Notes: generated from the sequence alone by a model not told the origin. A stretch of 64,000 bases of DNA from Blastocatellia bacterium (GCA_049273855.1 JBASRN010000270.1:8320-72319); one strand, 5' to 3'. Shown: positions 3,467 to 27,540, counted from the first letter of the stretch. Numbers and translations: made by a program.

Positions 3467-4084
3467 CTAGCGCTGCGCTCTGGATGCGATTCGCTGAGTC
3501 AGGTGAGGCAGAAACGTGTTGAGCACCCGGTAGCCCAACAAGACCGCGACAGCCACACCAAAGAGGATTGGCTCGCGAGTATCCGCCTTCACAAGCATGT
3601 AGTAATGAATCACTCCGCCGATTGCCGCGAGGTAAACCAGCCTGTGTACCTGGTTCCACCGCTTGCCACCCAGCCGCTTGATGCTCTTTTGAGTTGAAGT
3701 AAGAGCGAGCGGCACCAGCATAACAAAGCTCGCCATCCCGACGGTGATAAACGGGCGCTTGACGATGTCTTCGCCGATGAGCCTCAAGCCGAAAAACTTG
3801 TCGAACCAGACGTAGGTCAACAAGTGAATGCAGCCATAGAAGAAGCCGTACAGTCCGAGCAGGCGGCGGAACTTGATCATCCACGGAAGCACGAGCGTTT
3901 TGCGGAGCGGCGTAACGGCCAGCGAGAGTATAAGGAACAGCAACGTCAGCGCGCCGGTCGTGCGAGTCGCGAACTCGGTTGGGTTCGCGCCGAGGCGTTG
4001 ATGATACCAGTCCCAGCCAAGCATCGAGAGCGGCACCGCGCTGTTAACGAAAATCACGAACTGTGCGAATCTGGTGTCTTTCAT
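3467..4084 (-). CDS. msrQ: protein-methionine-sulfoxide reductase heme-binding subunit MsrQ (YedZ family)
   Basis: Multi-TM ferric-reductase-like protein (about 205 aa) immediately downstream of msrP on the same strand. Start assigned to ATG at 4084 (MKDTRF); the listed ORF extends further upstream, probably spuriously. Confidence 0.75.
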   Translation of the reverse strand: MKDTRFAQFVIFVNSAVPLSMLGWDWYHQRLGANPTEFATRTTGALTLLFLILSLAVTPLRKTLVLPWMIKFRRLLGLYGFFYGCIHLLTYVWFDKFFGLRLIGEDIVKRPFITVGMASFVMLVPLALTSTQKSIKRLGGKRWNQVHRLVYLAAIGGVIHYYMLVKADTREPILFGVAVAVLLGYRVLNTFLPHLTQRIASRAQR

Positions 4085-4089
4085 ATGGA

Positions 4090-4201
4090 AACGTGATTCG
4101 TCATTCGTAATTCGTGCGTGACCGCATCTAAATATTCCCTCATCACGAATCACGAATCACGAATCACGGCTCACCCGTCACGCATCACGGCTCACGCATC
4201 A
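4090..4201. repeat. heptad TCACG(A/C)A-type tandem repeats arranged as an imperfect palindrome (msrP-msrQ spacer)
   Basis: catcacgaatcacgaatcacgaatcacggctcacccgtcacgcatcacggctcacgcatcac lies on one side, with the inverted arm acgtgattcgtcattcgtaattcgtg on the other. A related copy is at 42163-42235. Confidence 0.5.
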
Positions 4202-4205
4202 CTCC

Positions 4206-5198
4206 TCAATAGTACCGCCGCAAATCCATGCCTTCGTACATCTGCGCGACTTGATCAGCGTAGCCGTTGAACAGAAGCGTGTCTCGCATCCCGAACTCGC
4301 CGATCCTGCGCTCGCGTGCCTGGCTCCATCGCGGATGGCTCACCGCCGGGTTCACGTTCGAATAGAATCCGTACTCGTTGGATGCGGCGAGATTCCACGT
4401 AGTCGGCGGCTCGCTGTCAACCAGACGAATCTTGACGATCGACTTGATCCCCTTAAAGCCGTACTTCCACGGCACAACCAGCCTGAGCGGCGCGCCGTTC
4501 TGAGGCGGCAGCGTCTCGCCATATAACCCGGTCGCCAGAATAGTCAGCGGGTGCATGGCTTCGTCGAGCCTCAGTCCCTCGACATAAGGCCAGTCCAGAA
4601 CACTAGACCGGATGTTTGGCATCCTCGCCGGATCGGCCAGCGTCTCGAAAGCGATATACTTCCCTTGGGAGTTCGGCTGCACCTGGTCCAGAAGCCTGCT
4701 CAGCGGGAATCCCACCCACGGAATCACCATCGACCAGCCTTCGACGCAGCGCATGCGGTAGACGCGCTCCTCGGGCGGCGCAAGCTTGATTAGTTCGTCG
4801 ATGTCGAAGACCTTCGGTTTGTTCACGAGGCCCTCGACCGAGACCGTCCACGGACGAGTTATGAAACCCCTCGCCTTGTCGGCCACCCCGCGTTTGTCGG
4901 TCGAGAACTCATAGAAGTTGTTGTAGTGAGTAATATCCTCGAAGGGAGTGTTCTTTTCATCGAGCTGGGCAATGGCCGGGGCGGACTGAACGTCGGCGAT
5001 CTTCTCGCCCGACGGCTCGGCAAGTTGTCCCTTCTCGTTAGTGCGGGTGAAGCTTCGATAGAGCAGGCCTGTCGCAGTCGTCGAAGCGGCCAGCACCACG
5101 CCGCGCATGAAGGTTCTGCGGTTCAGATAAATGCCCTGAGGTGTGATCTCGTTGCTTTTGATATCGTCCGGCTTCTTGACCAACATGGCTGCTTCCAA
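4206..5198 (-). CDS. msrP: protein-methionine-sulfoxide reductase catalytic subunit MsrP (YedY, molybdopterin-dependent)
   Basis: Twin-arginine signal ([14 protein letters not shown]) and sulfite-oxidase-fold molybdoenzyme motifs; length about 330 aa; followed by msrQ. Confidence 0.85.
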
Positions 5199-7582: not shown

Positions 7583-8608
7583 TCACAAAACCAGTTCGGC
7601 CATCACGCGAACCGACTGGATCCCCGAAGCGCCGCAGATCAAAGTGGTCACGCCGCTTTCCCGCCAGGCGGCAAGCTGGTCTTTGATTCGCTCGCGAGGT
7701 CCGCAAAGCGCAACTTCATCCACAAGCTCGTCTGGCACGGCGGCGATGGCTTCATTCTTTTTGCCTGCGAGGTAGAAGTCTTGAATCGTCTTTGCCGCTT
7801 CTTCGTAGCCGTAGCGGCAGGCGAGGTCATTGTAGAAATTCTTTCCGCGCGCGCCCATCCCTCCTATGTAGAGCGCGAGGTTCGGCTTTACGTGCATTCG
7901 GCACGCATTCACATCGTCTCCGATTACGACCGCAACGGTCGGAGCAATGTCGAAGTCGGAAATCGTTTTGCCGTCCTTGCGACGCGCGAAACCTGCATCC
8001 AGCGACTGACGAAACACGCCCACTCGCTTCGGCGAGAAAAAGACCGGCAGCCAGCCGTCGGCTATCTCGGCGGCGAGCGCGACATTTTTTGGCCCGATCG
8101 CCGCAAGGTAAATCGGGATGTCCGCGCGCAGCGGATGCACGATAAGCTTGAGCGGTTTGCCAAGACCGGTCCCCCCTTGCACCGGAATGTCGTAGTACTC
8201 GCCGTGATAATCGAGCGCGCGTTCGCGCTTCAAGATCGTGCGCAGTATCTCGACATACTCGCGGGTGCGGGTAAGCAGCTTGCCGTAGACAACGCCATGC
8301 CAGCCTTCGACAACCTGCGGGCCGGAAGCCCCGATACCTAAAAGGAAGCGGCCGCCGGTCAACAGGTCAATCGTGGCGGCGGTCATTGCTGTCATAGCCG
8401 GAGTCCGCGCCGGCATCTGCATGATCGCGGTGCCCACGTTAATTCGTTCGGTGTGAGCCGCCAGCCATACCAGCGGCGTCACCGCGTCCGACCCGTAAGC
8501 CTCAGCCGTCCACAATGAGTGATAACCGAGCCGCTCGGCTTCCTGGGCGATAGCGATGTTGTCTGAAGGGCCCGAACCCCAATACCCGAAATTCAATCCC
8601 AGTCGCAT
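7583..8608 (-). CDS. LLM-class flavin/F420-dependent oxidoreductase (luciferase-like monooxygenase family)
   Basis: [11 protein letters not shown]...[16 protein letters not shown]...[17 protein letters not shown] pattern of luciferase-like TIM-barrel oxidoreductases. Confidence 0.8.
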
Positions 8609-8955
8609 TATGCCTCCTCGCCAATTATCTTTCGAATCTCGTTAGGTGAAATATCTCCCTGCTCGAGCTTCGAATAGATTTCAACCAGCAGCACCGCCCC
8701 GGGATTCTTTAGCTGGTAGATAAGCCGATAACCAGAGCTCTTACCTTTCTGGGCATCCCGATTTCTTACTCGCACCTTGAATACGACATATTCGATTCCA
8801 TGAATCCGGTCACCAGGAAACTCACCGCTGTGGATTGTCTCAATAACCGGCTGTACGTCAGAGCGAATATGATGGTATTTCTTTGACAGTGCTCTGAGGT
8901 GACGTTTGAACGTGCGTGCGAACTTGATTGAAACCTCGGACGATTCATTCAGCAT
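8608..8955 (-). CDS. type II toxin-antitoxin system toxin, RelE/ParE superfamily
   Basis: A 115-aa basic protein with RelE-like core (YRLIYQL...LLVEIYSK). Overlaps the upstream small antitoxin gene by 11 bp. Confidence 0.65.
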
Positions 8956-9160
8956 CTATGCCATCCCACAACTCAGACACGGGGAATGTTTCGCCATGCT
9001 GCGCGTCCCGCCAGGCTTCACGAAAGCTCTCCGCGGCGGGCTTCAACGCAATGCTGTCGCGATAAAGACGAACTATCTGCAACAGGTTGGGCAAGTACTC
9101 ATCCGGGATGCTCCGAATTTCGCGGACGAACTGCTGTTCAATCGAAGCCTGCTTACTCAT
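8945..9160 (-). CDS. putative antitoxin (addiction-module component) paired with RelE-like toxin
   Basis: A 72-aa acidic protein (start at MSKQASIEQQF) immediately upstream of the toxin, overlapping it; classic TA gene order. Confidence 0.45.
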   Translation of the reverse strand: MSKQASIEQQFVREIRSIPDEYLPNLLQIVRLYRDSIALKPAAESFREAWRDAQHGETFPVSELWDGIDAE

Positions 9161-9346
9161 TGGTTCTCCTTCGGATTCGCAAATCTGAAGACAGTGTAGT
9201 CGGGAGTGGGTATCCAATCAACGTAACTCGGCCAGGTATCGGTGATTCGGAACCGAGGTTATTCGTTCGCGATGCAAGCATCACATGAATTTCCGTCGTC
9301 TGAACGCCTTGACGTCCGCGGCGCTGAGTTCAAACCACCTGCCGTT

Positions 9347-10036
9347 TCAGCGCTTCGACTCGAATCTCTTATGCCAGTACGCTTCTATGCCGACGGGATC
9401 ATCAGTGCGAATTACGTGCACCGTGTTCGCTTTCTCCGGAAGTTGAATCGCGAGCTCGCGCTCTCGGCGCCCCAATGCGTTGCTCCTCCCGATTTTGTAG
9501 AACTCTCTTGCCTTTAGAAGATAAACAACCCCAATTTCCTCGGCGCTCGCGTTCTCATCATCGAGATTCGCCTTGTCCTCTTGCGCAATCGCCTTGCACA
9601 TAGCGAGCACATCCTCGAATCCCTCGCGTTCTCGGCAGTGTTCAGCGACCTTCGAAACTAGCTGACTCTTTGGGCCTAACCGGCGGAAAGTCTTGTCACT
9701 CGGGAACCCGCCCTGTTCATGCGCCTTGAGGCGCAGGTCGCCGGAAACCGGGAAGTGGCCAAGTTCGCGGCAAATAGCGATGAGTTTCCCTATCAGCAGT
9801 TCGTCGGAGTAAGCCTTTTGCTTCTGATTCGGAGCAAGGCCAGCTTCCCGAACCGCGTCACTCCAGCGAGCCCAATATTTACCGTACCAGTCGGACTCCT
9901 TGATCCCGGTCTCCGTGAAGAATCTCAGCCTACCAAGCGGAACACCCCCGTTCGCTTTCGCAGCGCGTCTTATCTCGTCCAGGATATGCTTCTTGTTCAT
10001 GCTGATCGGTATTTTGCGCATCGCGAGAGGAATCAA
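9347..10036 (-). CDS. T5orf172 (MUG113)/GIY-YIG-superfamily domain protein with N-terminal helical repeat domain
   Basis: C-terminal GVVYLLKAREFYKIGRSN...RRERELAIQLPEKANTVHVIRTDDPVGIEAYWHKRF matches the T5orf172 domain signature. An alternative start is at 10000 (MNKKHILDEI). Confidence 0.5.
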   Translation of the reverse strand: MIPLAMRKIPISMNKKHILDEIRRAAKANGGVPLGRLRFFTETGIKESDWYGKYWARWSDAVREAGLAPNQKQKAYSDELLIGKLIAICRELGHFPVSGDLRLKAHEQGGFPSDKTFRRLGPKSQLVSKVAEHCREREGFEDVLAMCKAIAQEDKANLDDENASAEEIGVVYLLKAREFYKIGRSNALGRRERELAIQLPEKANTVHVIRTDDPVGIEAYWHKRFESKR

Positions 10037-11256
10037 CGAGAATCAGCCACCTTTTCCGATGTCCGATCGTTAAAGGTCAGAGCGAAGAACAATGTGATGA
10101 CTGCGGCGAATATGCACGGGATCAACCAGAACATTCGCCAATCCATGACTTCGTTGGTTTTCACAGCATCGCCCACCTTCCCGGAAACGATCGAGCCAAG
10201 CCCGATACCGACGCCATAGGTGATCAGCGCGATGAACCCCTGGGCACTGGCGCGAATCTCCCGCGGCGCTTTCTTGTCGACATAAATCTGCCCGGTGACG
10301 AAGAAAAAGTCATAGCAGATGCCGTGCAAAAGAAGGCCGCCGTAAATCATCCACGCCGCCGAGTCGAGGTTGCCGTACGCGAACAACGCATATCGCGCAG
10401 CCCATGCCAGCATCCCCACCAGCAGCATCTTTTTCACGCCCAGGCGAATAAAGAAAAACGGCATCAGAACCATGAAGACGACTTCCGACATCTGCCCAAT
10501 GCTCTGCTTGGCCGCCGCGTTCTCCATTTCCAAATAGTTGAGAAACGGATTCGTGAAATTGTAGTAGAAGGCCAACGGGATGGAGATTAGCAATGAACAG
10601 AGCACGAATACGAAGAACGACCTCTCCTTCAGCAACCTGATTGCTTTGAGGCCCAGCACTTCGCCGACACTGACCTTCTTGCCGACATTTTGCGGCGGCG
10701 TGTCCGGCAGCGTGAATGAATAGAGCCCCATCACAATGGAAGCGATCGCAGCCATCTTCATCGGAATTGCCGTCTCTTCGACCTGAGGATAAAACTTGCC
10801 CAGAATAAAAGAGATACTCAACCCGGCCGCTATCCAGCCGATTGTCCCCCAGACGCGTACCTTGGGGAACTGCGAGTCCGGGGTTTCCATTTGATGAAAT
10901 GAAATATTGTTGACCAGCGCCAGCGTCGGCATATAGCTCAGGTTGTAAAGCAACAGGCCGAAGATCAACCAGCCAACCGTTGCAACGTCTGCGGACAGGT
11001 AGAGGATGATGGCGCCGAGCAGATGAAGCGCACCCATCACTTTCTGCGAGGCGAAGAATCTGTCCGCGATCATGCCGATAAAGAAGGGGGAAATGATGGC
11101 GGCGATGTTGTTCATCAGGAACGCATAGCCGATTTGACTATTTGTGAAGCCGGGACCCTTCCCCAGGTACGTGCCAAGCGTCACAAACCACGCGCCCCAG
11201 ACAAAGAACTCGAGAAACATCATCACGCTCAGCCGAGTGTACGTCTTCGCATCCAT
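10033..11256 (-). CDS. MFS transporter, NupG/XapB nucleoside:H+ symporter family-like
   Basis: 12-TM protein with N-terminus (LSVMMFLEFFVWGAWFVTLGTYL...IAAIISPFFIGMIADRF) closely following NupG family topology and motifs. Confidence 0.7.
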   Translation of the reverse strand: MDAKTYTRLSVMMFLEFFVWGAWFVTLGTYLGKGPGFTNSQIGYAFLMNNIAAIISPFFIGMIADRFFASQKVMGALHLLGAIILYLSADVATVGWLIFGLLLYNLSYMPTLALVNNISFHQMETPDSQFPKVRVWGTIGWIAAGLSISFILGKFYPQVEETAIPMKMAAIASIVMGLYSFTLPDTPPQNVGKKVSVGEVLGLKAIRLLKERSFFVFVLCSLLISIPLAFYYNFTNPFLNYLEMENAAAKQSIGQMSEVVFMVLMPFFFIRLGVKKMLLVGMLAWAARYALFAYGNLDSAAWMIYGGLLLHGICYDFFFVTGQIYVDKKAPREIRASAQGFIALITYGVGIGLGSIVSGKVGDAVKTNEVMDWRMFWLIPCIFAAVITLFFALTFNDRTSEKVADSR

Positions 11257-11383
11257 TCAACGAGTCTCCACGTTCGTAGTACCGCCCTCAGCACGTTTCG
11301 TAGTACCGCCTTCAGTCAGGCGGAAGTTCGCGAGGCTGCAACAGTCCGTCATGAACTTCCGGCTGAAGGCCGTACTATGAACG

Positions 11384-11998
11384 TTACTGGATCTCTCTTA
11401 CTCGCACGCGGCGGAACGAGACGCGCGAGATCAGATCGTGGTTTTGCAAACCAACGAAGCCTTCGGTGGCGCGAGTGCCCTCGAACTCGTTTACCTTCTC
11501 GCCGTTCAGTTCGACAGTGTAGCGCTGACCCACGACTGTTATCTCAAAAAGATTCCACTGGCCTGCAGGCTTGGAAGCCACTCTGGTAGCTGGATGAAAA
11601 CTGTAGATCGAGCCCGTCTGAAACATCAGACCCTTTTCCGCGCAGTCGTCGATTTGAATCTCGTAGCCGTTGTTCACCGCGTACCATGGGTCGTCGCTTT
11701 TGTCGGGGAAGCGAACAAACACGCCCGAGTTGTTGCACTTGTGGTTGGCCTTCCACTCGACTTGCAGCGTGAAGTTGCGAAACTTTCGCCCTTCGTACCA
11801 CAGCATTCCCATCCCGCCGTGAGTAACCAGCGCCCCGTCTTCGACGGTGAAGTTGCCTTTGCCGGCCATTCGCCAACCAGTCACGTCTTTGCCGTTGAAC
11901 AGATCGATCCACTTGCCGTCCTTCTTCCGCGGCACCGCGAGCGCAGCAAGCGAAAGGAATAGTATCAACCCGCCAGTTATCATTGTTCTTTCTCTCAA
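11384..11998 (-). CDS. DUF1080 (3-keto-disaccharide hydrolase-like, concanavalin-type fold) secreted protein
   Basis: Signal peptide and the IDLFNGKDVTGW...GYEIQIDD...GLQNH motif pattern characteristic of DUF1080 / PF06439. Confidence 0.8.
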   Translation of the reverse strand: MRERTMITGGLILFLSLAALAVPRKKDGKWIDLFNGKDVTGWRMAGKGNFTVEDGALVTHGGMGMLWYEGRKFRNFTLQVEWKANHKCNNSGVFVRFPDKSDDPWYAVNNGYEIQIDDCAEKGLMFQTGSIYSFHPATRVASKPAGQWNLFEITVVGQRYTVELNGEKVNEFEGTRATEGFVGLQNHDLISRVSFRRVRVREIQ

Positions 11999-12057
11999 TG
12001 TTGTTCCCAGCCTTTCAAGACAAGACGAGGTTCGAAATCAATCCGCAATCCGCAATC

Positions 12058-13758
12058 CTATAGGTTTCCCTTCTTGTGTTGATCCACAACGTACTCACAA
12101 GCCCGAACCGTCAGCGCCATCATCGTCAGCGTGGGATTCTGACACCCGATCGAAACAAAACAAGAGCCGTCGGTCACAAACAGGTTCTTCACGTCCCAAC
12201 TCTGATTGAACTTGTTGAGCACCGAGGTCTTGCGGTCGTTCCCCATTCGCGCGGTGCCGACCTCGTGAATGCACAGCCCCGGCGAGGCGAGAAACGGACT
12301 GCCGAAGTTGACCTGGAACTTCGCTTCGTGAGCCATCTCATTCAACGTTTCCAACATGTCCCGAGCCATGGCCTTCTCGTTGTCGCCGTGACTGCAGTCG
12401 ATGTGCGCTACGGGAATTCCCCACGCGTCTTTCATTTCCTTGTCGATCGTCACCCGGTTCTCTTTGCGCGGCAACATCTCGCCCCAGCCGCCAAGCCAGA
12501 ACGGCGCCGGATCGTTAGTTTCCCGCACTCTCTTCTTGTACTCCGAACCGAAGCCAGGGATCGACTTGAGCGTCGTCGGCAGCATCCCTCGCTGCACGCC
12601 ACCCTGCATGCCGTAGCCGCGAATGAAGTTGGGATGGCGGTCGTGGACGTTTCTAAACTTCGGTATATAGATGCCGTTCGCCCGCCCGTCGTCGAAGTTG
12701 TAGCGGTAATTAGCAACAGCCGGAACGACTCCCCCTATTGCAATCTGAAAGATGTGGTCCATCAGGTAACGACCCAGCACTCCCGATGAGTTTCCCAACC
12801 CGGCCGGATGCTGGCGAGTCGCGCTGTTCATCAACAGCCGTGTTGATTCAATCGTCGAAGCGCACAACATCACGACTTTGCCGAACACCTCGAAAGTGTT
12901 CTTTGTGACTTGATCTATGCAGGCGACGCCCCTGGCTTTGCCAGTTCTGGTGTCTACGATGACGTGACTCGCGACTGCGTTAGTGCGCAGCGTAAGCCTG
13001 CCAGTCTTAGCCGCAGCCGGAAGCGTCGAGCCGGGGCTGCTGAAGTACGACGAAGTCGTGCAGCCCCGATCGCAGTGACCGCACCAGTGACACGCGGCTC
13101 GCCCGTTGTGCCGCTGAGTCAGTATCGCCGCGCGGCCGATCATCACGCGGCGATCTTTCCACTTTCGCTCGACGCTTTTCTTTAACAGCCACTCGCCGCA
13201 TGTCATCTTCATCGCCGGTAAGAACTTTCCATCGGGGAGATTCGGAACGTTCTCGTACGAGCCGCTGACGCCGATGAACTCTTCGACCTTGTCGTAGTAC
13301 GGAGCAAGCTCGGTGTAACTGAGTGGCCAATCCTCGCCAAACCCGTCACGGCTCGCGGCCTTCAGCTCGCAGTCCGAAAGCCGATACGTTTGCCGTCCCC
13401 AGGTGATCGTGCGCCCGCCGACCTGGCGGCCGCGAATCCAGTCGAACTGTTTGCGATCGGGCGTGGTGTAGGGATTGTCGATGTCGTCTACAAAGAATTG
13501 ATGTCCGTACTCGTTACACGCGTAGCACTTCGACTGAACGGGCTGGCGCGCGCGAAAGACTTCGCGGTTGCCTAAAGTGCCGCGGTACTTAACTTCGTAG
13601 GGCCAGGTGTGCTCGTTGAAGTCTCTATCGGGATCGAGCTTGCGTCCGGCTTCGAGCACGATCACTCGCATGCCTTTTTCGGTTAGCTCCTTCGCGGCCC
13701 ATCCGCCGGTCGCGCCTGAACCGACCACGATTGCGTCGTAGATTTCTTCCTTAGGCAT
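12058..13758 (-). CDS. GMC family oxidoreductase (FAD-dependent, glycoside/sugar 3-dehydrogenase-like)
   Basis: N-terminal FAD fold [19 protein letters not shown]-terminal GMC motifs ([17 protein letters not shown]). Paralog of 16467-18176. Confidence 0.85.
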
Positions 13759-13781
13759 TGATGACCTCTCGAGCAGCGCCG

Positions 13782-14276
13782 CTATCGGTTAGCATCGATC
13801 TCATGTATCTGCTGCGTAATCGTCTCGTGATTGACTCCCAACTGCTCGAACAGTGTTACTGAATCGCTCCGGGCATTGGCGAAGATTCCAATGAGAACAT
13901 CCTCGGCTTCAATTCTTCCACGTCCATTCTGGCGAGCGTGTTCGAGCGCAGCCGCTAGCGTCGCGCGGAATTCTTCTGAGACCTTTAAGGCGTCGCCCGC
14001 ATGACTGCCCTGACCTAACCCCTCGGATATTGCATGCAGGGCAACTTCCGGATCGCGGTTCAGCTTATGCAGCAGGCTTTCAAACTTTAGCGATTCGATT
14101 TTGGCATACGCGATTAACGCATGTTCTGGAACCAGTTGCGAGTGCTTCAACGCTCTTGCTTGTCTGTAAGCCCCGCGTACAATCCTTTGACCACTTTCAG
14201 CAACTTTGCCTGTGTAAACTTCAAAGCTAATATCGCTTGGGCGTAACCCAAAGTGAGCAAGTAGGGTCTTCATCAA
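13782..14276 (-). CDS. Clp N-terminal (Clp_N repeat)-like domain protein
   Basis: Two helical repeats resembling Clp_N (EHALIAYAK..., [10 protein letters not shown]...). Sits between the GMC and TIM-barrel genes; function unknown. Confidence 0.4.
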
Positions 14277-14325
14277 CTTCGTTGACGCTCCACATCCCGA
14301 GACTTCTCATTGCCGGAATCAACTC

Positions 14326-15192
14326 TTAGGCGGTGCTCATCTTCAAAACTTCCCTGAGCGTTTCATCCGCCATTCGAGACGGTTTGTACTCCAGTCCCAC
14401 AAACCCCTGATACCCCGAAGCCGCGATCGCGCGAAACACGTTGGCGTAGTTGATCTCGCCCGTGCCCGGCTCGTGACGGCCGGGCACGTCCGCTATGTGA
14501 AAGTGCGCGATCTTCGCGATGTTCTTTGTGATGTCCGCGATCACGTTCCCCTCCATGATCTGATGGTGATAGATGTCGAACAACATCTTAAGCGCGGGGC
14601 TTCCGACTTCATCGATCATCTCGAAGCCCTCCTTCGCTGTCTGCAAATAGTAGCCCGGGTGATCGACTTTTATGTTGAGCGGTTCGAGCACAAGTGTTAC
14701 CTGGGCTTGCTCGGCCAGCGGAACGGCAGCCTTCAAAGCCGTGACGTAGTTCGCGTGTTGTTCGGCGCGCGCGATGCGCTTGTCCTCGAAGCCGGTGGTC
14801 ACAATCAGAGTCTTCACCCCCAACCGTTTCGCGGTTACCAGTGACGCTTGAATCTCTGCCACGAAAGTCTTGCGCGCTTCCTCGGAGTTCATATGCTTCC
14901 AACCCGAACCCATGATCGTAGCGATCTCGAGACCGAGCTCGTTCTTCTTCCGAAGGATTGCCTCGACGTCTTTGTTCTTCCACTCCCAGAACTCGAATGC
15001 GGGGTAGCCAAGCTTTTTGATCCGCTCCATTCGGTCGACGAATGGGACCTCGGTGAGGATCATGTCGATGCAGACCGACAGCCTTATCGGGTTGGGTTTC
15101 GATTGCGGCAGCGACCTGACAAGCAGCGGCGCAGCGGCGACAAACGCCGACGCGCCTGCTGCCTGCCTGAGAAAGTGCCTGCGACTGAGCAT
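14326..15192 (-). CDS. sugar phosphate isomerase/epimerase (xylose isomerase-like TIM barrel), Tat-secreted
   Basis: Twin-arginine signal MLSRRHFLRQAAGASAF followed by an AP-endonuclease-2/xylose-isomerase-like TIM barrel. Confidence 0.8.
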   Translation of the reverse strand: MLSRRHFLRQAAGASAFVAAAPLLVRSLPQSKPNPIRLSVCIDMILTEVPFVDRMERIKKLGYPAFEFWEWKNKDVEAILRKKNELGLEIATIMGSGWKHMNSEEARKTFVAEIQASLVTAKRLGVKTLIVTTGFEDKRIARAEQHANYVTALKAAVPLAEQAQVTLVLEPLNIKVDHPGYYLQTAKEGFEMIDEVGSPALKMLFDIYHHQIMEGNVIADITKNIAKIAHFHIADVPGRHEPGTGEINYANVFRAIAASGYQGFVGLEYKPSRMADETLREVLKMSTA

Positions 15193-15390
15193 GGTTTCTT
15201 GGTCCGGGTTTGATGCCCCGCCTTAGGGAGTCTGTCGGATTAATGGTCTTCTCTGCGCTCCGCGGCCTTGTATCGCGGCGGTGAGATATTTTTCGCGACC
15301 AGCTAACCGCGGACGCCAAGACGCAGAGGTTCGCCCAGAGAGCGACTAAACCTTCCACTGACCTGAAACGCGGAACTACGAACTGTTCAC

Positions 15391-16263
15391 TCAGGACAGC
15401 GTGCGCTTCAAATACTCAAACGCCTCCCGCACCGATGGCGTCGGGTTTTGGGGTTCGGGCTCGTACTCGATGTTTGCTGCATATTTGAACTTGAGCTTCT
15501 TGATCAGTTTCATCGTCTCGACGATCGGAGTCGCGCCTTCTCCAAGCTTGTGCTGTGTGCGTTCTGCGTCCTTCGCGCGGTCTTTGATGTGCAGGCTCAC
15601 GATCCGGCTGTGATGCTCGCGTATGTAGGCGACCGGATCGAACCCTGAGGCGAAGAAGTGCCCGATGTCCAGGTTGATACTCATATACTCCGAAGCGCCT
15701 TTGAGCGCGCTTGCGAAGTCCTCCGGCGTTTCAAACTCCTGAGTGCGGTCGCCCTTAAACCACTTCTCGCCGAACCAGTGGTTGTGAAGCCCCATTTTGA
15801 TCTTGTACTTCTGGCACCATTGATCGAGCTTCGGTACGATTGGTTTCTTGACCGACGCGGTCATCACGCTAGTCCCAAGCAGCAGCGCTCCGTTGAAGCC
15901 GCGATCCAGATGTTCGTCCGTGGCCGTGATCGGGAAGTTTACGCAGTAGGCATTGACTCGAATCCCGGCACCGTCGAACTTCTTTCGGGTCGTCATGAAA
16001 TCAGCTTCCGAAGCTTTCATGGGGTTGAGGTGCCCGTCCCACAGCTCGATGCTGCTCAAGCCGATCGAGACCATAGCCTCGATCATTTTGTCGACGCTGA
16101 AAGTCCGAAACGTGTAGCTCTGCACGCCCACTTGAATGCCACCAAAGACAGACGGCTTCAGCTTGTCACCCGGTTGGCCGGAGGCGATGCCCCGCATTGA
16201 AATGCCGGCCGCGCTTGCGAGCACGCCCTTGCCAAAGTCTCTTCGTGTTAGGCGATCGTTCAT
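15391..16263 (-). CDS. sugar phosphate isomerase/epimerase (xylose isomerase-like TIM barrel), Tat-secreted
   Basis: Twin-arginine signal (LTRRDFGKGVLASAAGI) followed by a xylose-isomerase-like TIM barrel (IELWDGHL..., LHNHW..., NLDIGHFF). Confidence 0.8.
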   Translation of the reverse strand: MNDRLTRRDFGKGVLASAAGISMRGIASGQPGDKLKPSVFGGIQVGVQSYTFRTFSVDKMIEAMVSIGLSSIELWDGHLNPMKASEADFMTTRKKFDGAGIRVNAYCVNFPITATDEHLDRGFNGALLLGTSVMTASVKKPIVPKLDQWCQKYKIKMGLHNHWFGEKWFKGDRTQEFETPEDFASALKGASEYMSINLDIGHFFASGFDPVAYIREHHSRIVSLHIKDRAKDAERTQHKLGEGATPIVETMKLIKKLKFKYAANIEYEPEPQNPTPSVREAFEYLKRTLS

Positions 16264-16347
16264 TGATCCCCGACGTGCGGCGAAATGCGGCCCGCGCCTC
16301 AGGCCTGCGCCGCATCGGGTCGCATCATACCGACAACCCGGGAGAGT

Positions 16348-16382
16348 GACAAGTAACGATCAGTGGCGGACAAGTGACGATC
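16348..16382. promoter_or_regulatory. tandem 14-bp direct repeats GACAAGTAACGATC / GACAAGTGACGATC in divergent promoter region
   Basis: Two near-identical 14-mers, 21 bp start-to-start, in the 203-bp spacer between the divergently transcribed TIM-barrel and GMC genes. Candidate operator. Confidence 0.35.
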
Positions 16383-16466
16383 TTGCTTCGCCGCTGAACG
16401 CTGTGATAACTTCCGCGCGCCGAAGTAGCACAACCTGCCAGCTTTTGATCTCAGGGCGGAGGGCCA

Positions 16467-18176
16467 GTGGCGAAGCAGAAAATCTACGACGCAATCATCA
16501 TCGTCTCGGGCGCTTCCGGAGGCATGGCGGCCAAGGAGCTCACCGAGCGCGGCATGGAAGTGCTAGTTCTTGAAGCCGGCCCGCCCGTTAATCCCGAACG
16601 CGATCTCAGCTCGCATCGCTGGCCTTATGAATCGCTTTACCGTGGATTTGGAGCTCCGGGTTGGAAAGACCAGGACCAGTGGATGCAAGCGACCGCCGGG
16701 GAGTTCAGCCGCCAGTTCTACGTCAAAGACTCCGAACATCCCTACACCACCGAGCCAGGCAAGCCGTTCCTCTGGGTGAGGGCGCGGATCGCCGGCGGCA
16801 AGACGCTTCACTGGGGCCGGATGTCGTATCGACTCTCCGATCTCGATTTCAAAGCGGCAACACACGACGGTTTCGGCGACAACTGGCCGATCAGCTATGA
16901 GGAGCTTGCGCCCTACTACGACAAAGCCGAAGAGTTCATCGGCGTCAGCGGCTCGCGAGACGGCTTGCCGAACTTGCCCGACGGAAGCTTCCAACCGCCG
17001 ATGAAGCTGAACTGCGGCGAGCAGATGCTTCGCCGAGGCGCGCAGAAGACCGGTCGCCACGGCATCCCCATGCGCGTCGCTATGCTGACAGCGCCGCCTA
17101 AGCCGTGGATGAAAAAGCGAAACCGGTGTCACTTCTGCGGCAACTGCGGAGACGGCTGCGACGTGGGCGCGATGTTTAACTCGCTTTCCTCCACTCTTCC
17201 GGTCGCCGAGGCCACCGGCCGCATGACTCTGCGGACCGATTCGATCGTTCGCCACATCATAGTCGACACCAACACCGGCAAAGCGAAGGGCGTCGCGCTT
17301 GTGGACCGCGTGACTCGCCAGGAGCGCGAAGAGTTCGCCAGGGTGATCGTGCTAGGAGCCTCGACGCTCGAGTCGACCCGAATAATGTTGAACTCGAAGT
17401 CGCGCCAGCACCCGAACGGGCTGGGCAATTCGTCGGGCAAGCTCGGGCACTACCTGATGGATCACTTCGGCGGGATCTTCATAAGCGGCTACTTCAACGT
17501 GCTGGCCGATCGCGAACCGGTGAATGAAGACGGCAAGACTTCGGGCTTGCTGGTACCCCGCTTTCGGAACATCAACAAAGAAACGAAGCAGCAGCGATTC
17601 GTTCGCGGCTACGGGTTCGAGTGCGGATCGGGTTCGCGTCAGTTCCCGGCCTTCGCAAAGAACGCGCAACTCACGCCGGGCTTCGGCTCGGAGTACAAGA
17701 AGCGAGTGCGCCACTACTACTCGACGCCGGTGAGCATGACGGTGCGAGCCGAGATGTTGCCGCGCTTTGAGAACTACGCGGAGATTGACCCGGATGGCGT
17801 GGTAGACGCGTGGGGCATCCCGGTGCTCAAGATTCATTGCCAGTACTCGGACAACGAGCGCGAGATGGCTCGCGACTCGATCGAGACCATGCAAGAGATC
17901 ATGAAAGCTGCGGGCGCCGAAATGGCGTCGATGGGCACGCGCATGAGCGCACCTGGCCGGATCATTCACGAGTTGGGAACCGCTCGGATGGGAACCGACA
18001 GAAAGACATCGATCCTGAACAAGTTCAATCAGAGTTGGGATGTGAAGAACCTGTTCGTGATCGACGGCGCGGCTTTTGTTACGAGCGCGAATCAGAATCC
18101 GACTTTGACGATACTCGCATTGACGATGCGGGCTTGCGATAAGCTGGTGGATGAGTTCAAGCGAGGAAACGTCTAG
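16467..18176 (+). CDS. GMC family oxidoreductase (FAD-dependent), second paralog
   Basis: DAIIIVSGASGGMAAKEL Rossmann motif and GMC C-terminal motifs (HELGTARMG, NLFVIDGA). Same architecture as 12058-13758. Confidence 0.85.
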   Translation: MAKQKIYDAIIIVSGASGGMAAKELTERGMEVLVLEAGPPVNPERDLSSHRWPYESLYRGFGAPGWKDQDQWMQATAGEFSRQFYVKDSEHPYTTEPGKPFLWVRARIAGGKTLHWGRMSYRLSDLDFKAATHDGFGDNWPISYEELAPYYDKAEEFIGVSGSRDGLPNLPDGSFQPPMKLNCGEQMLRRGAQKTGRHGIPMRVAMLTAPPKPWMKKRNRCHFCGNCGDGCDVGAMFNSLSSTLPVAEATGRMTLRTDSIVRHIIVDTNTGKAKGVALVDRVTRQEREEFARVIVLGASTLESTRIMLNSKSRQHPNGLGNSSGKLGHYLMDHFGGIFISGYFNVLADREPVNEDGKTSGLLVPRFRNINKETKQQRFVRGYGFECGSGSRQFPAFAKNAQLTPGFGSEYKKRVRHYYSTPVSMTVRAEMLPRFENYAEIDPDGVVDAWGIPVLKIHCQYSDNEREMARDSIETMQEIMKAAGAEMASMGTRMSAPGRIIHELGTARMGTDRKTSILNKFNQSWDVKNLFVIDGAAFVTSANQNPTLTILALTMRACDKLVDEFKRGNV

Positions 18177-18204
18177 GAATTTCGGATTGCGGATCGAGGG
18201 AGCG

Positions 18205-18813
18205 ATGTTCGGAATTGAACAGAAACGGGCAATGACAAGAGCGGCCGCAAAAGCGGCGAAACTTCACTCGATCGCGGCGGTGATGCGCGGGCGGAGCTTC
18301 GCAGGCAATTTCGAAGCAGGTGGGGTCCCCTACGGTTTTACTTACGACCCCCGGAAGTCATCGCTGATCGGCCGTAGACTTCGACTCAACGGAGGTCTGA
18401 CCGTCGTCGACGGGCGGCCTGACGCTAGAGTCCCTCCGCACAGTCTCAACAATGTGCGTGCGACACTGGTGAGCGCCCAGGGTGGAATAGGAACCGCTCC
18501 GCCGCGCAAGAAGATGCCCGCTGATCTTTCGCCCGTCCGGCCCGACTTGCCCGTAGTTGAGAGCACCGGCGCGCTTTCGTTTTGCGGCGTGCTTTACTTT
18601 AAGCTTTCGCCGCTCGATGGACGCGCTCTCGGAGTTCCAGCGGTCATGGGCCCGTTGCAACTAAACGTACGGCTCGCACCAGCGAACGACGCGGAACGCA
18701 ATCTTCAGGGTGTTTTCAGCTCGATCGTTGATGCCCTGTTCGGCAAGCAGATGGACATCGCCACGGCTTCCGCCCACATACGTGACTTGAACAAGATTCT
18801 CGCTTCGGGCTGA
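18205..18813 (+). CDS. hypothetical protein
   Basis: ATG at 18205 preceded by a GAGGGA Shine-Dalgarno; no recognisable domain. Overlaps the GMC stop if the longer listed ORF is used. Confidence 0.3.
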   Translation: MFGIEQKRAMTRAAAKAAKLHSIAAVMRGRSFAGNFEAGGVPYGFTYDPRKSSLIGRRLRLNGGLTVVDGRPDARVPPHSLNNVRATLVSAQGGIGTAPPRKKMPADLSPVRPDLPVVESTGALSFCGVLYFKLSPLDGRALGVPAVMGPLQLNVRLAPANDAERNLQGVFSSIVDALFGKQMDIATASAHIRDLNKILASG

Positions 18814-19002
18814 GGACTCGGCGCGCTCCGAGTGTCATCTGATCTAACACACCTCGCGCTGGTTCCAACAATCAACCGGGGCCCGTCCGATCTTCCGCTT
18901 CGTGATAAAACAGCCGAGCTATCGCTGGTCTTCGCAAGATGCCCTCGCAGTTGAGCCGTGCTAATATCCGAGTTGAAAAGACGAGGATAGAAAGAGGTTA
19001 TC

Positions 19003-20310
19003 TTGCCTCAGCGAAACTATCGAGACCCGCTTCACAACATCATCTCGCTCGACGAGGCTTTGCCGGACGACCGCCTGATCGTCGAGTTGATCGACTCACT
19101 GGAGTTCCAGAGGCTTCGGAGAATAAAGCAACTGGGGTTGGCGATGTTCACCTATCAGGGCGCGGAGCACAGCCGCTTCACCCACTCCCTCGGCGTGATG
19201 CATTTAATGACTCGCGTGCTTGGTCTGCTAGGCTCCCATCACAAGATCAGCGATGAGGCGCGGGTGGTCGGGCGCGCCGGCGCGCTTCTTCACGACCTTG
19301 GTCACGGCCCGTTTTCTCATGTAATAGAGAAGGTGTTTGGCTTTCATCACGAGGATTGGACGTGCCGCATAGTCCTGGATGAAACAACCGAAGTCAATCG
19401 CGTGTTGCGCGCATTTGACGGGCAGCTTCCCGAGAAACTCGCGTTGCTTTACAAACACAGTTACTCGCCGGCGTTCGTTTCGCAGCTCGTCTCGTCGCAG
19501 CTTGATTGCGACCGAATGGACTACCTGCTGCGCGACAGCCTTATGACCGGCGCGAAGTATGGGGTCTTCGATTCGGAGTGGGTGCTTCATGCGCTCAAGA
19601 TCGATGCGGAGTCGGATAGGGTTTACGTGGAAGCGAAGGGCCTATACGCCGTCGAGGAGTATTTGCAAGCCAGATACTACATGTTCCGTCAGGTTTACTT
19701 TCATCGTACGCTGAGATCGGCTGAAGCGGTGCTGATCGCTACACTCAATCGCGCTCGCGCGCTGCTGATGCGCGGAGAGCTTTGCTTTCGAATGCCCGGC
19801 TCGGCTTTCGAAAAGCTGTTGGTGGGGGAGGCGGTAAGCACACCGGAGTATCTTGAACTCGACGACACCGATCTGACTTTTCATTTGAAGCAGTGGTCGC
19901 GGGATCCAGACCCGATGCTAGCCGACCTGGCCGGGAGGTTTATGGCTCGAAGGCTGTTCAAGGCTGCGGATGTTCATCTGTCGGGCGCCGCCTTTGATCG
20001 TTTCTGGAAGCGGGCACAGGAGGCGGTTCAGCAGGCAGGCTTTGATCCCGAGTACTACTTGCTTATGGACCGGGCGACCGATGTCCCGTACTACGGGTAC
20101 TACTCTCCGGCCAGCGTCGACCCGCGCGGATTGATCTATGTCGAAGCGGGGGAGACCGGGTCACCCATAAAGGAGATCAGCGAGATATCAGACGTCGTCC
20201 GAGGAATGCGCGGCTACAAGATCGATCGAATGTGCTTCCCGGTCGAAGTGGCCGACCAGTTGTCGGCCTTGATGAGTGAACACGAAGGACAGGCGAATAC
20301 GGCTCCTTGA
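19003..20310 (+). CDS. HD-domain phosphohydrolase (dNTP triphosphohydrolase/SAMHD1-like family)
   Basis: [10 protein letters not shown]...[12 protein letters not shown]...[12 protein letters not shown] motifs. TTG start at 19003 with an AGAGG RBS. Confidence 0.75.
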
Positions 20311-27171: not shown

Positions 27172-27432
27172 TTCACGCCTCCCTATTAGGCACAGAGCAT
27201 TCGCCAACAAAAGGACGAGGTTAGCCGAGCACCGAATGGGCGACCGCGCTCCTCGATAAAGCAGACGACAACAAAGGACCGGCTGTTGAAACTCGCGAAC
27301 AGTATCACAAGTACCGAACTGTTTTCAATCCCGTCGCCTTGCGCTATATGAATAACTGCACCTTAATTAACCCAATAACAGGGTTATACCTGTTTTAATC
27401 AAAATCTGGCCCAGATCACCGCGCAATGTAGA

Positions 27433-27448: not shown

Positions 27449-27540
27449 GTGTTTGCCGTTATGGTAAAAGCTCGGGGTCTAGAGTTCAGAGATAGTTGCG
27501 ACTGTTGGTCTGGGTTCGGTTTGTGGTATGTTACCAAGCC

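Follow-up and report, generated by a model that had tools for sequence, protein, structure and literature searches.

A conserved two-operon cluster in Blastocatellia as a candidate system for oxidative keto-sugar processing

A 64 kb segment of a Blastocatellia MAG, analyzed over its whole length and referred to below as the window, encodes two divergent operons that include a pair of GMC oxidoreductases. At roughly even odds (a probability of about 0.5), this cluster of soil Acidobacteria processes a sugar or glycoside oxidatively by way of keto-sugars, as a variant of the 3-keto-glycoside pathway. The combination of a sugar-oxidizing flavoprotein, exported TIM barrels and an exported DUF1080 protein fits documented 3-keto-glycoside systems. 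A preliminary description of the locus had proposed a 3-keto-glycoside or C-glycoside pathway; the family combination and the conserved unit described here support the first of these.

Organization and conservation of the cluster

All open reading frames (ORFs) named in the preliminary description are present where it had placed them, and the family of each was confirmed by Pfam. Six co-directional genes occupy the minus strand from 16263 down to 10033: the xylose-isomerase-like TIM barrels TIM2 (15391-16263; AP_endonuc_2, PF01261, E 5e-15) and TIM1 (14326-15192; PF01261, E 5e-44), a stand-alone Clp N-domain protein (Clp_N; 13782-14276; PF02861, a weak match at E 8e-6), GMC1 (12058-13758; GMC_oxred_N and GMC_oxred_C), a DUF1080 protein (3keto-disac_hyd; 11384-11998; PF06439, E 1e-45) and an MFS:H+ symporter of the NHS family (10033-11256; Nuc_H_symport, PF03825, E 1e-119). 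Seven genes had been announced for this interval, although six were listed; a seventh ORF belongs to an insertion. GMC2 (16467-18176, plus strand; homology to 6a2u) was rightly recognized as a second, divergently transcribed paralog and is about 52% identical to GMC1. In 16 related loci from Blastocatellia/Acidobacteriota, 15 of which underlie some of the counts below, the conserved unit consists of orf202 and GMC2 diverging from TIM2, TIM1, GMC1, DUF1080, the permease and an F420-dependent luciferase-like (LLM) oxidoreductase of the Rv3520c subfamily, with TIM1 and DUF1080 facultative. Because this unit includes LLM (7583-8608, minus strand; Pfam and NCBIfam) and orf202 (18205-18813, plus strand, downstream of GMC2), the cluster reaches past the limits of 10033 and 18176 originally assigned to it on both sides.

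Of 15 orthologous loci, 14 have TIM2 upstream of GMC1 and 10 have the GMC2-orf202 pair divergently adjacent; in L003 TIM1 and GMC1 are separated by only 3 nt. In 12 of 16 loci the permease is found at most 10 kb away, and LLM, its conserved downstream partner, is adjacent or near in 11 of 16; TIM1 is present in 10 of 15 loci and DUF1080 in 8 of 16. That these genes are mere neighbors without a shared pathway, their synteny reflecting recent common ancestry, is very improbable. Full clusters were found only in Blastocatellia or close Acidobacteriota, and because all strong synteny thus lies within one class, inheritance rather than selection may explain part of it; TIM1, DUF1080 and GMC2 are also sometimes missing. 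Nevertheless, gene order is retained down to 76% GMC1 identity despite the turnover of unrelated genes in the spacers, the LLM-permease-DUF1080 block has moved elsewhere in two loci (L009 and L083) and is still together, L061 and L062 have TIM2 upstream of a GMC paralog at 62%, and permease-GMC pairs occur in other phyla.

Conserved promoters likewise argue against chance proximity. The putative promoter region between the TIM2 operon (minus strand) and GMC2-orf202 (plus strand), at 16264-16466, contains a predicted promoter TTGTCA-17-TATGAT at 16352-16324 on the minus strand (10 of 12 matches), and this TTGTCA/TATGAT -35/-10 pair is conserved across nine aligned divergent spacers. The nine aligned spacers also conserve a second -10-like block on the opposite strand, where the window has TGTGATAAC and both L059 and L010 have TATAAT. 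Synteny over 16 loci and back-to-back promoters together support the interpretation of the cluster as a real functional unit.

Two insertions interrupt this arrangement. The Clp_N protein, previously counted as a component of the cluster, aligns over its whole length to a two-repeat ClpC N-domain, and only two relatives were found, namely itself and one at 76%. Its gene has a GC3 of 0.51 versus 0.70-0.78 and a dN/dS of 0.33, compared with 0.065 and 0.008 for its flanks, and none of the 16 orthologous loci, L087 and L088 included, carries it. In the closest relative (L002) its slot is occupied by a RelB-like gene that cannot be aligned with it. The Clp_N gene is a foreign, fast-evolving and variable insertion in the TIM1-GMC1 spacer, outside the pathway. 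A strain-specific insertion of 1.4 kb (8619-10046, minus strand), recognized by comparison with L002, where the LLM gene follows the permease gene immediately (13809 to 13812), separates these two genes in the window. It holds a RelE-like ORF (8608-8955; Pfam; GC3 of 0.52) and an HNH_repeat/MUG113 ORF (9347-10036, minus strand; Pfam) that is co-directional with the permease gene and overlaps its stop by 4 nt. Like the Clp_N gene, the RelE and HNH genes are later insertions with no part in the pathway.

The GMC oxidoreductases

By sequence, GMC1 and GMC2 are assigned to the Fe–S flavoprotein dehydrogenase clade of FAD-glucose and fructose dehydrogenases, in which GMC1 is a predicted sugar dehydrogenase catalytic subunit. 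GMC1 matches fructose dehydrogenase (7w2j) and FAD-GDH (6a2u) over its full length with E about 5e-35, and GMC2 matches 6a2u, also over its full length, with E 1.5e-39. The invariant residues of GMC1 are C223/C226/C229/C233, H498 and N541; in BcGDH three cysteines (C212/C218/C222; PMC6719666) ligate the 3Fe-4S cluster, and all three align with cysteines of this CxxCxxCxxxC motif, as does the His/Asn pair with its counterpart. In GMC2 the cysteine cluster reads CHFCGNCGDGC and the covalent-FAD histidine, replaced by threonine in GMC1, is kept; compared with 10 orthologs, the first glycine of the GMC2 GxGxxG motif is changed to valine (G13V) in this window only.

A placement with CarA and the glycoside 3-oxidases, raised in the preliminary description, was rejected, given the Fe–S cysteine cluster and the extent of the matches: CarA (7dve) and PsG3Ox (7qf8), both at E 1e-8 to 1e-14, and pyranose oxidase align with the GMCs only over about 130 C-terminal residues, versus full-length matches to the Fe–S dehydrogenases (E 1e-35 to 1e-39). 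C-glycoside deglycosylation of the CarA/CarB/CarC type follows the same general recipe of a GMC flavoenzyme and a xylose-isomerase-like TIM barrel, but we consider it highly unlikely here, as neither TIM1 nor TIM2, profile searches included, matches any solved chain bearing the name of a C-glycoside deglycosidase subunit and a small CarC/DgpC-like partner is not conserved in the cluster; this half of the original proposal found no specific support.

The homologs of GMC1 number more than 7999, and several of them (77-80% identity) are named 'glucoside 3-dehydrogenase (cytochrome c) catalytic subunit' by JGI. Because C1-, C2- and C5-specific sugar dehydrogenases all occur in the same GMC clade, oxidation at C3 can be proposed but does not follow from clade membership. 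No signal peptide was seen on GMC1 or GMC2, and neither a Gluconate_2-dh3 homolog (the Tat "hitchhiker" subunit) nor a cytochrome c candidate (a CxxCH ORF of at least 100 aa) is encoded anywhere within the 64 kb. GMC paralogs of 65-70% identity have cytoplasmic-looking neighbors, one of 69% lying between OMP-decarboxylase-like and Zn-ADH genes. On these grounds the oxidation might be cytoplasmic, in which case, with periplasmic downstream enzymes, the step order proposed below would break. The same features, and the fact that fructose and glucose dehydrogenases are the best solved relatives, favor a possible, though rather doubtful, alternative in which a free sugar, polyol or sugar acid is oxidized without glycoside cleavage. 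The GMCs would then resemble fructose, sorbitol, gluconate or glucose dehydrogenases, possibly acting in the cytoplasm after MFS uptake, with the TIM barrels as Hyi/OtnI/IolE-type isomerases or epimerases and DUF1080 optional. The nearest GMC1 paralog (75%) speaks against it, being grouped with ThuA, Gfo/Idh/MocA and a Tat small subunit, which are genes of the 3-keto-disaccharide type.

The product of orf202 belongs to an unnamed family of proteins of about 200 aa whose genes always lie directly downstream of GMC2-type genes; a role as an accessory or electron-transfer adaptor subunit is speculative.

TIM barrels, DUF1080, permease and LLM

The Tat signals first described for the two TIM barrels are borne out: the twin-arginine motifs of TIM1 (SRRHFL) and TIM2 (TRRDF) are conserved in orthologs as RR-x-F-L/I-K and TRR(D/E/Q)F, respectively. 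DUF1080 has a hydrophobic Sec-type leader that is conserved as well, and, judging from these motifs, all three proteins would be exported. TIM1 resembles hydroxypyruvate isomerase/OtnI (TIGR03234, 183 bits, under the cut-off); the family models it fits best are those of hydroxypyruvate and 2-oxo-tetronate isomerases, and its PDB relatives are 3ngf, 1k77 and the 3-keto-D-glucoside 4-epimerase 6wn6 (E 4e-12). We propose that it is a keto-sugar isomerase/epimerase or lyase and a facultative member of the cluster. TIM2, which is found upstream of GMC1 more constantly than any other gene, represents an uncharacterized PF01261 subfamily that weakly matches IolE and whose only PDB relatives, also with a 12-sequence profile, are the structural-genomics proteins 3lmz, 3p6l and 4kw2; it may be a 3-keto-glycoside lyase. 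The PDB relatives of DUF1080 are 3h3l, 4jqt, 8rr2, 8tda and 8v31 (E 1e-15 to 1e-9), and by analogy with the activities of its family (PMC8121099, bioRxiv 10.1101/2024.03.25.586180) this facultative member is proposed to be a 3-keto-glycoside lyase/2-hydroxy-3-keto-glycal hydratase. The lyase/hydratase components of the characterized pathway come from the DUF1080 and PF01261 TIM barrel families (bioRxiv 10.1101/2024.03.25.586180), and in Caulobacter DUF1080 and IolE-like TIM genes cluster with the LacABC glucoside 3-dehydrogenase (PMC9007349, PMC8121099). As DUF1080 and TIM1 are each absent from a third to half of the orthologous clusters, the lyase/hydratase steps would there depend on TIM2 alone.

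The isomerase models matched by TIM1, the IolE resemblance of TIM2 and the half of clusters that do without DUF1080 would also suit oxidation of a free sugar without cleavage; however, exported TIM barrels and DUF1080 would not be fed by a purely cytoplasmic oxidation, and the only activities linked to DUF1080 so far are glycan hydrolysis and the chemistry of 3-keto-glycosides (PMC8121099, PMC9007349, bioRxiv 10.1101/2024.03.25.586180). We retain the 3-keto-glycoside variant as the preferred reading.

The permease, formerly assigned to the NupG family, is by sequence YegT-like rather than NupG-like: it scores 331 bits (E 7e-98) against E. coli YegT (8zoj) and 219 bits against NupG (7dl9), carries the GxxxD motif of TM10 and reaches 385 bits on TIGR00889, under the cut-off of 446. 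YegT lacks the residues with which NupG contacts uridine and has no established substrate (PMC11979927), which weakens the hint at a nucleoside-like substrate previously seen in this gene. A pathway for a nucleoside or nucleoside-like (ribosyl) compound, signaled by an NHS-family permease, is thus improbable, even though the PF03825 match is strong and the sources of permease homologs call them 'nucleoside permease'. An HD-domain protein is encoded nearby (19003-20310; Pfam), but its gene is kept only in L002, no nucleoside-metabolizing gene is conserved in the cluster, and in three phyla the permease has sugar genes of the GMC and DUF1080 families as its neighbors. Its pairing with GMC genes, once thought unusual, is not confined to the 12 loci noted above and recurs in KSB1 (GMC and permease), in Woeseiaceae, where one contig has GMC, permease and DUF1080 together, and in another acidobacterial lineage. 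Import of a sugar or keto-sugar may be its function. LLM matches Bac_luciferase in Pfam (E 2e-80) and TIGR03559 (469 bits versus a cut-off of 335), and no signal peptide was seen on it; it may be a cytoplasmic keto-sugar reductase.

Proposed pathway and related systems

No enzyme of the cluster has a characterized close homolog, and the solved relatives of TIM2 are proteins without known function. From the families and their arrangement we infer the substrate class, regiochemistry, compartments and order of steps as follows. GMC1 and/or GMC2 would oxidize a ring hydroxyl of the substrate, most likely at C3, to a ketone, with electrons passing from the FAD and Fe–S dehydrogenases to a respiratory acceptor and not to O2. 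TIM2, along with TIM1 where present, and DUF1080 would then act on the keto-glycoside by beta-elimination, epimerization and hydration, freeing a keto-sugar together with the aglycone or the partner sugar. The product would be taken up by the YegT-like symporter, and in the cytoplasm LLM would convert the keto-sugar to an ordinary sugar.

Among known systems, CarA/CarB/CarC and PsG3Ox resemble the cluster in having the fold of the GMC superfamily and partners from a TIM-barrel family, but they represent another GMC clade with C-terminal similarity only, their enzymes are oxidases without an Fe–S cluster, and the window has no CarC-like subunit. With the E. coli YegT/NupG NHS family the strongly YegT-like permease shares the PF03825 fold and the TM10 GxxxD, although it falls under the NCBIfam nucleoside-permease cut-off and its genes stand in a setting of sugar oxidation instead of nucleoside salvage. 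The catalytic subunits of the Burkholderia cepacia FAD-GDH gamma-alpha-beta complex (6a2u, PMC6719666) and of Gluconobacter fructose dehydrogenase (7w2j) are homologous to the GMCs over their full length, have the 3Fe-4S cysteines and His/Asn pair in common with both and the covalent-FAD histidine with GMC2, and likewise have no signal peptide. They differ in their cysteine motif (CCx4Cx3C, versus the four cysteines of CxxCxxCxxxC), in the cysteine of the gamma-subunit disulfide, which is histidine in the GMCs, in the covalent-FAD site, which is threonine in GMC1, and in having gamma and beta subunits, whose genes are absent at the locus.

The AL/BT 'alternative glycosidase' pathway of Alistipes/Bacteroides (BT2156-BT2159; bioRxiv 10.1101/2024.03.25.586180; PMC8121099) likewise combines a DUF1080 lyase/hydratase with a 3-keto-beta-glucoside lyase that is a periplasmic TIM barrel, with the same predicted compartments for the TIM and DUF1080 proteins and an extra cytosolic oxidoreductase. 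Its oxidant, in contrast, is a Tat-exported, NAD-bound Gfo/Idh/MocA protein that recycles its cofactor, versus an Fe–S/FAD GMC needing an external acceptor; its cytosolic enzyme is Gfo/Idh/MocA instead of LLM, and no sequence similarity of TIM1 or TIM2 to a solved lyase from that pathway could be detected. Compared with the LacABC clusters of Caulobacter crescentus and Pedobacter (PMC9007349, PMC8121099), the window lacks a Tat small subunit and a cytochrome c gene, near the GMCs or elsewhere in the 64 kb, and a Gfo/Idh/MocA gene in the cluster, and has instead two GMC paralogs, a protein of about 200 aa coupled to GMC2, the F420-dependent LLM and the YegT-like permease. By gene content rather than LacA sequence, both bring together in one cluster the genes for a GMC catalytic subunit, xylose-isomerase-like TIM barrels and a secreted DUF1080, and both would first oxidize the substrate to a 3-keto-glycoside and then cleave it outside the cytoplasm.

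Extent and conservation of the cluster

The minus strand of the cluster encodes, in order of increasing coordinate, an MFS permease of the NHS family (10033-11256; PF03825, E 1e-119), a DUF1080 protein (11384-11998; PF06439, E 1e-45), an oxidoreductase of the Pfam GMC family (GMC1, 12058-13758), a stand-alone Clp N-domain protein (13782-14276; PF02861, E 8e-6) and two PF01261 TIM barrels (TIM1, 14326-15192; TIM2, 15391-16263). A second GMC enzyme, 52% identical to GMC1, is transcribed divergently on the plus strand (GMC2, 16467-18176). ORF coordinates, Pfam and NCBIfam confirm the positions and families given in the preliminary description, except that the stretch it credited with seven co-directional genes holds six. 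Two flanking genes belong to the same arrangement: one for an F420-dependent luciferase-like oxidoreductase (LLM, 7583-8608, minus strand; TIGR03559, 469 bits versus a cut-off of 335) and an ORF located 3' of GMC2 on the plus strand, orf202, which is delimited as 18205-18813 since homology among its relatives starts at Met19. Export signals are predicted by motif for three of the products, with twin-arginine motifs in TIM1 (SRRHFLRQAAG...) and TIM2 (TRRDFGKGV...) and a hydrophobic Sec-type leader on DUF1080, all kept in orthologs; LLM has no signal peptide. Pfam detects no Gfo/Idh/MocA family among the cluster genes at 7583-20310. Across the window there is no Rfam family and no tRNA, and a terminator scan gave only weak intragenic matches.

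The conservation of this arrangement was explored by mapping the window's proteins onto 80 fetched genome loci with a GMC alignment (designated L001, L002 and so on), plus several contigs retrieved by exact protein look-up; loci with a GMC at least 76% identical to GMC1 were taken as the orthologous set (n=16). The recurrent order in this set is [orf202 - GMC2] <> [TIM2 - (TIM1) - GMC1 - (DUF1080) - permease - LLM], and all eight genes occur together in L002, L087 and L088. TIM2 lies upstream of GMC1 in 14/15 loci, TIM1 is present in 10/15 and GMC2 with orf202 is divergently adjacent in 10/15; the permease is found within 10 kb in 12/16, LLM in 11/16 and DUF1080 in 8/16. The LLM-permease(-DUF1080) block of L009 and L083 is relocated 7-9 kb away on the other strand, its members still together, and the TIM2-GMC adjacency recurs with a 62% GMC paralog (L061, L062). 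The pairing of permease and GMC, previously described as unusual, is itself recurrent, being found (in part with DUF1080) in a KSB1 contig, a Woeseiaceae contig and another acidobacterial lineage. The 203-bp divergent spacer contains a promoter-like TTGTCA-17-TATGAT site which, together with a -10-like block on the opposite strand, is conserved in an alignment of nine orthologous spacers. The conserved arrangement thus defines a unit of about 7583-18813, wider than the 10033-18176 first proposed.

The nearest GMC1 paralog (75% identity) has ThuA, Gfo/Idh/MocA and a Tat small subunit as neighbours. Its cluster (L052:7163-13183, L039, L015), composed of Gfo/Idh/MocA, a PF13618-like gene, ThuA (PF06283), GMC and a Tat-Gfo/Idh/MocA, is another, equally conserved, module of the 3-keto-disaccharide type in the same bacteria; ThuAB has been linked to 3-keto-disaccharide formation (PMC8121099). 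Elsewhere in the window, a pair encoding MsrP (NF003767, 469 bits; Tat motif NRRTFM) and an MsrQ-like protein (Ferric_reduct) occupies 3467-5198 on the minus strand, and the same pair follows the cluster in L087. Genes for dnaN (24409-25527, minus), dnaA (25789-27210, minus) and parA/parB-like proteins (27496-29155, plus) lie in a stretch of lower GC content (0.48-0.53 between 24 and 32 kb), which probably places the cluster some 7-17 kb from the chromosomal replication origin; an ORF encoding a DDE transposase domain of the IS1 type (30263-31243, plus) is in the same low-GC stretch.

The GMC enzymes: affiliation and compartment

In a search of all solved structures, GMC1 aligned over residues 7-564 with Gluconobacter fructose dehydrogenase (7w2j, E 5e-35) and GMC2 over residues 7-563 with the FAD-glucose dehydrogenase of Burkholderia cepacia (BcGDH; 6a2u, E 1.5e-39), each of the two matching both catalytic subunits over the full length (E 1e-35 to 1e-39). 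CarA (7dve), the Pseudarthrobacter glycoside 3-oxidase (7qf8) and pyranose oxidases matched only the C-terminal ~130 residues, about 430-560, with E-values of 2e-12 to 6e-8 for GMC1 and 1.5e-14 to 2.4e-12 for GMC2. This comparison excludes the CarA/oxidase clade, one of the affiliations initially considered, in favor of a full-length likeness to respiratory Fe-S flavoprotein dehydrogenases. C-glycoside deglycosylation, which the preliminary description had named as a candidate function, is accordingly difficult to sustain: in addition to the C-terminal restriction of the CarA matches, none of the solved chains matched by TIM1, TIM2 and a TIM2 profile bears the name of a C-glycoside deglycosidase, and we consider this reading highly improbable. 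The cluster contains no conserved gene for a small beta-subunit of the CarC type.

The residue-level comparison supports the same affiliation. The 3Fe-4S ligands of BcGDH, C212, C218 and C222 (PMC6719666), all align with cysteines of a CxxCxxCxxxC motif in GMC2 (CHFCGNCGDGC; [11 protein letters not shown] in GMC1). The four cysteines are invariant in GMC1, GMC2 and 8 homologs, as well as in 10 GMC2 orthologs with sequence over the region. Likewise invariant among ten aligned homologs is the catalytic His/Asn pair in IHE(L/V)GTARMG and QNPTLT (H498 and N541 in GMC1 numbering), and the histidine that binds FAD covalently in BcGDH is retained in GMC2 and is a threonine in GMC1. Judged by sequence, GMC1 and GMC2 belong to the clade of respiratory Fe-S flavoprotein dehydrogenases and are predicted to carry a 3Fe-4S cluster. 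Because this clade also holds C1-, C2- and C5-specific enzymes, C3 regiochemistry is something that we infer for the GMCs, indirectly, from genomic context and from homolog names, several proteins 77-80% identical to GMC1 bearing the automated JGI name "glucoside 3-dehydrogenase (cytochrome c) catalytic subunit". In line with PMC8121099, the clade takes in the LacABC/G3DH glucoside 3-dehydrogenases.

The main rival to a keto-glycoside pathway would be one acting on free sugars, polyols or sugar acids, with the GMCs possibly cytoplasmic. The best GMC matches are indeed fructose and glucose dehydrogenases, the TIM1 profile resembles hydroxypyruvate/2-oxo-tetronate isomerases, and DUF1080 appears dispensable; we regard this alternative as unlikely, while giving it more weight than any other.

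The first glycine of the GxGxxG FAD-binding fingerprint, at residue 13, is present in GMC1 and in each of the 10 GMC2 orthologs whose N-terminus is intact; in the window's GMC2 it is replaced by valine (GTC, 16503-16505; IIVSGASGG versus IIGSGASGG), which could be a loss-of-function allele or a consensus error in the metagenome-assembled genome (MAG), which derives from a member of the Blastocatellia (Acidobacteriota).

Neither GMC ORF can be extended at its 5' end and each starts directly at the FAD fingerprint, so that neither protein has a signal peptide. Members of the clade are usually accompanied by a Tat-signal "hitchhiker" small subunit (PF13618, here also called gamma) and a cytochrome c subunit (PMC6719666). 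Pfam finds no PF13618 small subunit in the cluster, tblastn searches of the 64 kb with four gamma subunits from related loci returned nothing at E<0.07, and no ORF of at least 100 aa in the 64-kb window contains CxxCH, a count that applies to the window and leaves room for such genes elsewhere in the genome. More distant GMC paralogs do have a small subunit (L057, L081, L052/L039/L015 and KSB1 L086). Since both hitchhiker and cytochrome c subunits are absent from the window, the GMCs may be exported, travelling with either a Tat-TIM barrel or a carrier whose gene lies elsewhere, or they may be cytoplasmic.

A more speculative possibility, which we consider quite doubtful, is a new dehydrogenase-complex architecture in which Tat gamma and cytochrome c are both replaced. 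GMC1 would piggy-back on the upstream Tat-TIM barrel to form a dehydrogenase-lyase complex, GMC2 would be wired via orf202 to the membrane quinone pool or another acceptor, and the F420-dependent reductase would carry out the final, cytoplasmic step. In a third GMC clade, the gene upstream of GMC encodes gamma in L057 and Tat-TIM2 in L061 and L062. A general rule that a Tat-signal protein always lies directly upstream of a signal-less GMC fails in L060, a locus of the same clade, which has a Sec-signal ThuA in this position and no gamma within 10 kb.

Permease, orf202 and inserted genes

The permease, introduced as NupG-like, is much nearer to E. coli YegT (331 bits against 8zoj, versus 219 bits against NupG), keeps the GxxxD motif and, with 385 bits, falls below the cut-off of 446 for nucleoside permeases in NCBIfam TIGR00889. 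The uridine-binding residues of NupG are not conserved in YegT (PMC11979927), and the nucleoside family name is therefore a poor guide to substrate. A pathway for nucleosides, suggested at first by that name, consequently seems very improbable, to about the same degree as one for C-glycosides. The window permease shares 94% identity with the L087 permease (8001-9224) but only 73% with the one in L002 (12602-13822), even though the genes flanking the latter are 88-96% identical to their counterparts in the window, a pattern suggestive of allelic replacement or of recombination affecting the permease gene inside the cluster.

The orf202 product has no match in Pfam or NCBIfam, and HMMER, run in full against 1.84 billion representatives, yielded 104 relatives of ~200 aa. 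The gene lies 3' of GMC2 in 13/13 loci whose GMC2 is at least 69% identical, and the family HMM also detects proteins encoded downstream of the third GMC clade, which have Sec signal peptides. An AlphaFold model built with the family alignment (pLDDT 86, pTM 0.81) consists of a beta-meander followed by two helices, a confidently predicted fold that appears essentially novel, with only faint similarity to YceI. An assignment as divergent gamma subunit or cytochrome was considered and is not supported, as orf202 has no Tat motif, CxxCH or Pfam match and its predicted fold is unlike the all-helical gamma subunit.

The Clp N-domain gene had been singled out as an oddity between GMC1 and TIM1. Both the gene and its two-repeat Clp domain are confirmed: the ORF encodes 163-164 aa without attached AAA+ modules, of which residues 18-159 align to residues 5-146 of the ClpC N-terminal domain (E 2e-5). 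A role in the pathway is not upheld, the insert being missing in orthologous loci. The DNA of the close relative L002 is colinear with the window except for segments 13750-14338 and 8619-10046; at the equivalent of the former, L002 has an unrelated RelB-like gene of 66 aa instead of Clp_N. The TIM1-GMC1 spacer is empty in L087, L088, L003 and L007 and holds a methyltransferase in L008, while response regulators or DUF7689 are found upstream of more distant GMC paralogs. The GC3 of Clp_N is 0.51, versus 0.70-0.78 in its neighbours. The sole other copy found, in L001, is 76% identical, versus 94-99% for the flanking genes, and between the window and L001 dN/dS is 0.33 for Clp_N, 0.065 for GMC1 and 0.008 for TIM1, at similar dS. 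A pathway subunit or a substitute small subunit was thus rejected, given the absence of Clp_N from 16/16 orthologous loci, its foreign GC3 and its relaxed constraint. By composition and context, Clp_N is genuine as a gene but accessory: it was acquired horizontally, occupies a variable slot and lies outside the pathway. Another Blastocatellia MAG has a stand-alone Clp_N-like ORF (31% identity; L028:9268-9834) directly upstream of a GMC1 paralog of 68% identity. This only recurrence of the adjacency is probably a coincidence, although it may reflect a loose association.

The second segment, an insertion of 1.4 kb at 8608-10046 (minus strand), is absent from L002, in which the permease and LLM genes are joined directly. 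It contains a RelE-like ORF (PF06296, weak; GC3 0.52), a 90-aa ORF without matches (8945-9217) and an HNH_repeat/MUG113 (GIY-YIG-like) ORF. As a RelE-like homolog with 69% identity is found at the permease-LLM junction of L009, this junction is a recurrent landing site.

A putative oxidative pathway and its known counterparts

Oxidative, non-Koshland glycoside breakdown has been worked out only recently in gut Bacteroidota, and its spread in soil phyla is poorly charted. In the pathway that we propose, GMC1 and/or GMC2 would oxidize the substrate, TIM2, TIM1 and DUF1080 would eliminate, epimerize or hydrate the resulting keto-glycoside, the YegT-like permease would import a product, and LLM would reduce the keto-sugar in the cytoplasm. 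We assign this scheme of oxidation, elimination or hydration, import and reduction a probability of roughly 0.5 as a whole. The sequence data establish the protein families, the residues for cofactor binding and catalysis, the export signals, and the conservation of gene linkage and promoters; oxidation at C3, the substrate, the order of steps, the localization of the GMCs and the roles of LLM and orf202 are all parts that we infer by analogy. If the scheme is correct, abundant uncultured soil Acidobacteria would keep a respiratory Fe-S/FAD version of the keto-glycoside toolkit. The TIM2 subfamily, the orf202 family and the YegT-like permease have no characterized relative, and the cluster places YegT-type transporters, which in E. 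coli still lack an assigned substrate, in a specific genomic setting. It also raises the question of whether, and how, an Fe-S flavoprotein with neither signal peptide nor hitchhiker reaches exported partners. Literature searches on DUF1080 with GMC, on acidobacterial GMC with xylose isomerase, and on gluconate 2-dehydrogenase subunit 3 with GMC found nothing relevant.

Several components have counterparts in characterized systems. Caulobacter uses LacABC for the periplasmic C3 oxidation of glycosides, lactose among them, and requires DUF1080 proteins for what follows (PMC9007349). In Bacteroides and Alistipes, the 3-keto-glycoside is formed by a Tat-exported oxidoreductase, a secreted TIM barrel acts as 3-keto-beta-glucoside 1,2-lyase, DUF1080 combines 3-keto-alpha-glucoside lyase and 2-hydroxy-3-keto-glycal hydratase activities, and a fourth enzyme, another oxidoreductase, is cytosolic (bioRxiv 10.1101/2024.03.25.586180; PMC8121099). 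The exported DUF1080 of that pathway is shared by the window, although it is missing from half of the orthologous clusters. The window's TIM barrels, candidate lyases, carry PF01261 and an export signal, with no detectable similarity to a characterized lyase. The oxidant in Bacteroides and Alistipes is a Tat-exported, NAD-dependent Gfo/Idh/MocA enzyme, whereas in the window GMC enzymes take its place. Oxidative keto-glycoside catabolism by a LacA-type flavoprotein, DUF1080 and TIM barrels is a known kind of system; what is new here, in an uncultured soil class, is that the Fe-S GMCs are duplicated, come with neither hitchhiker nor cytochrome subunits and are joined by the TIM2 subfamily, the orf202 family, the YegT-like permease and the F420-dependent reductase. 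The cluster extends a known type of pathway while overturning nothing in its current understanding.
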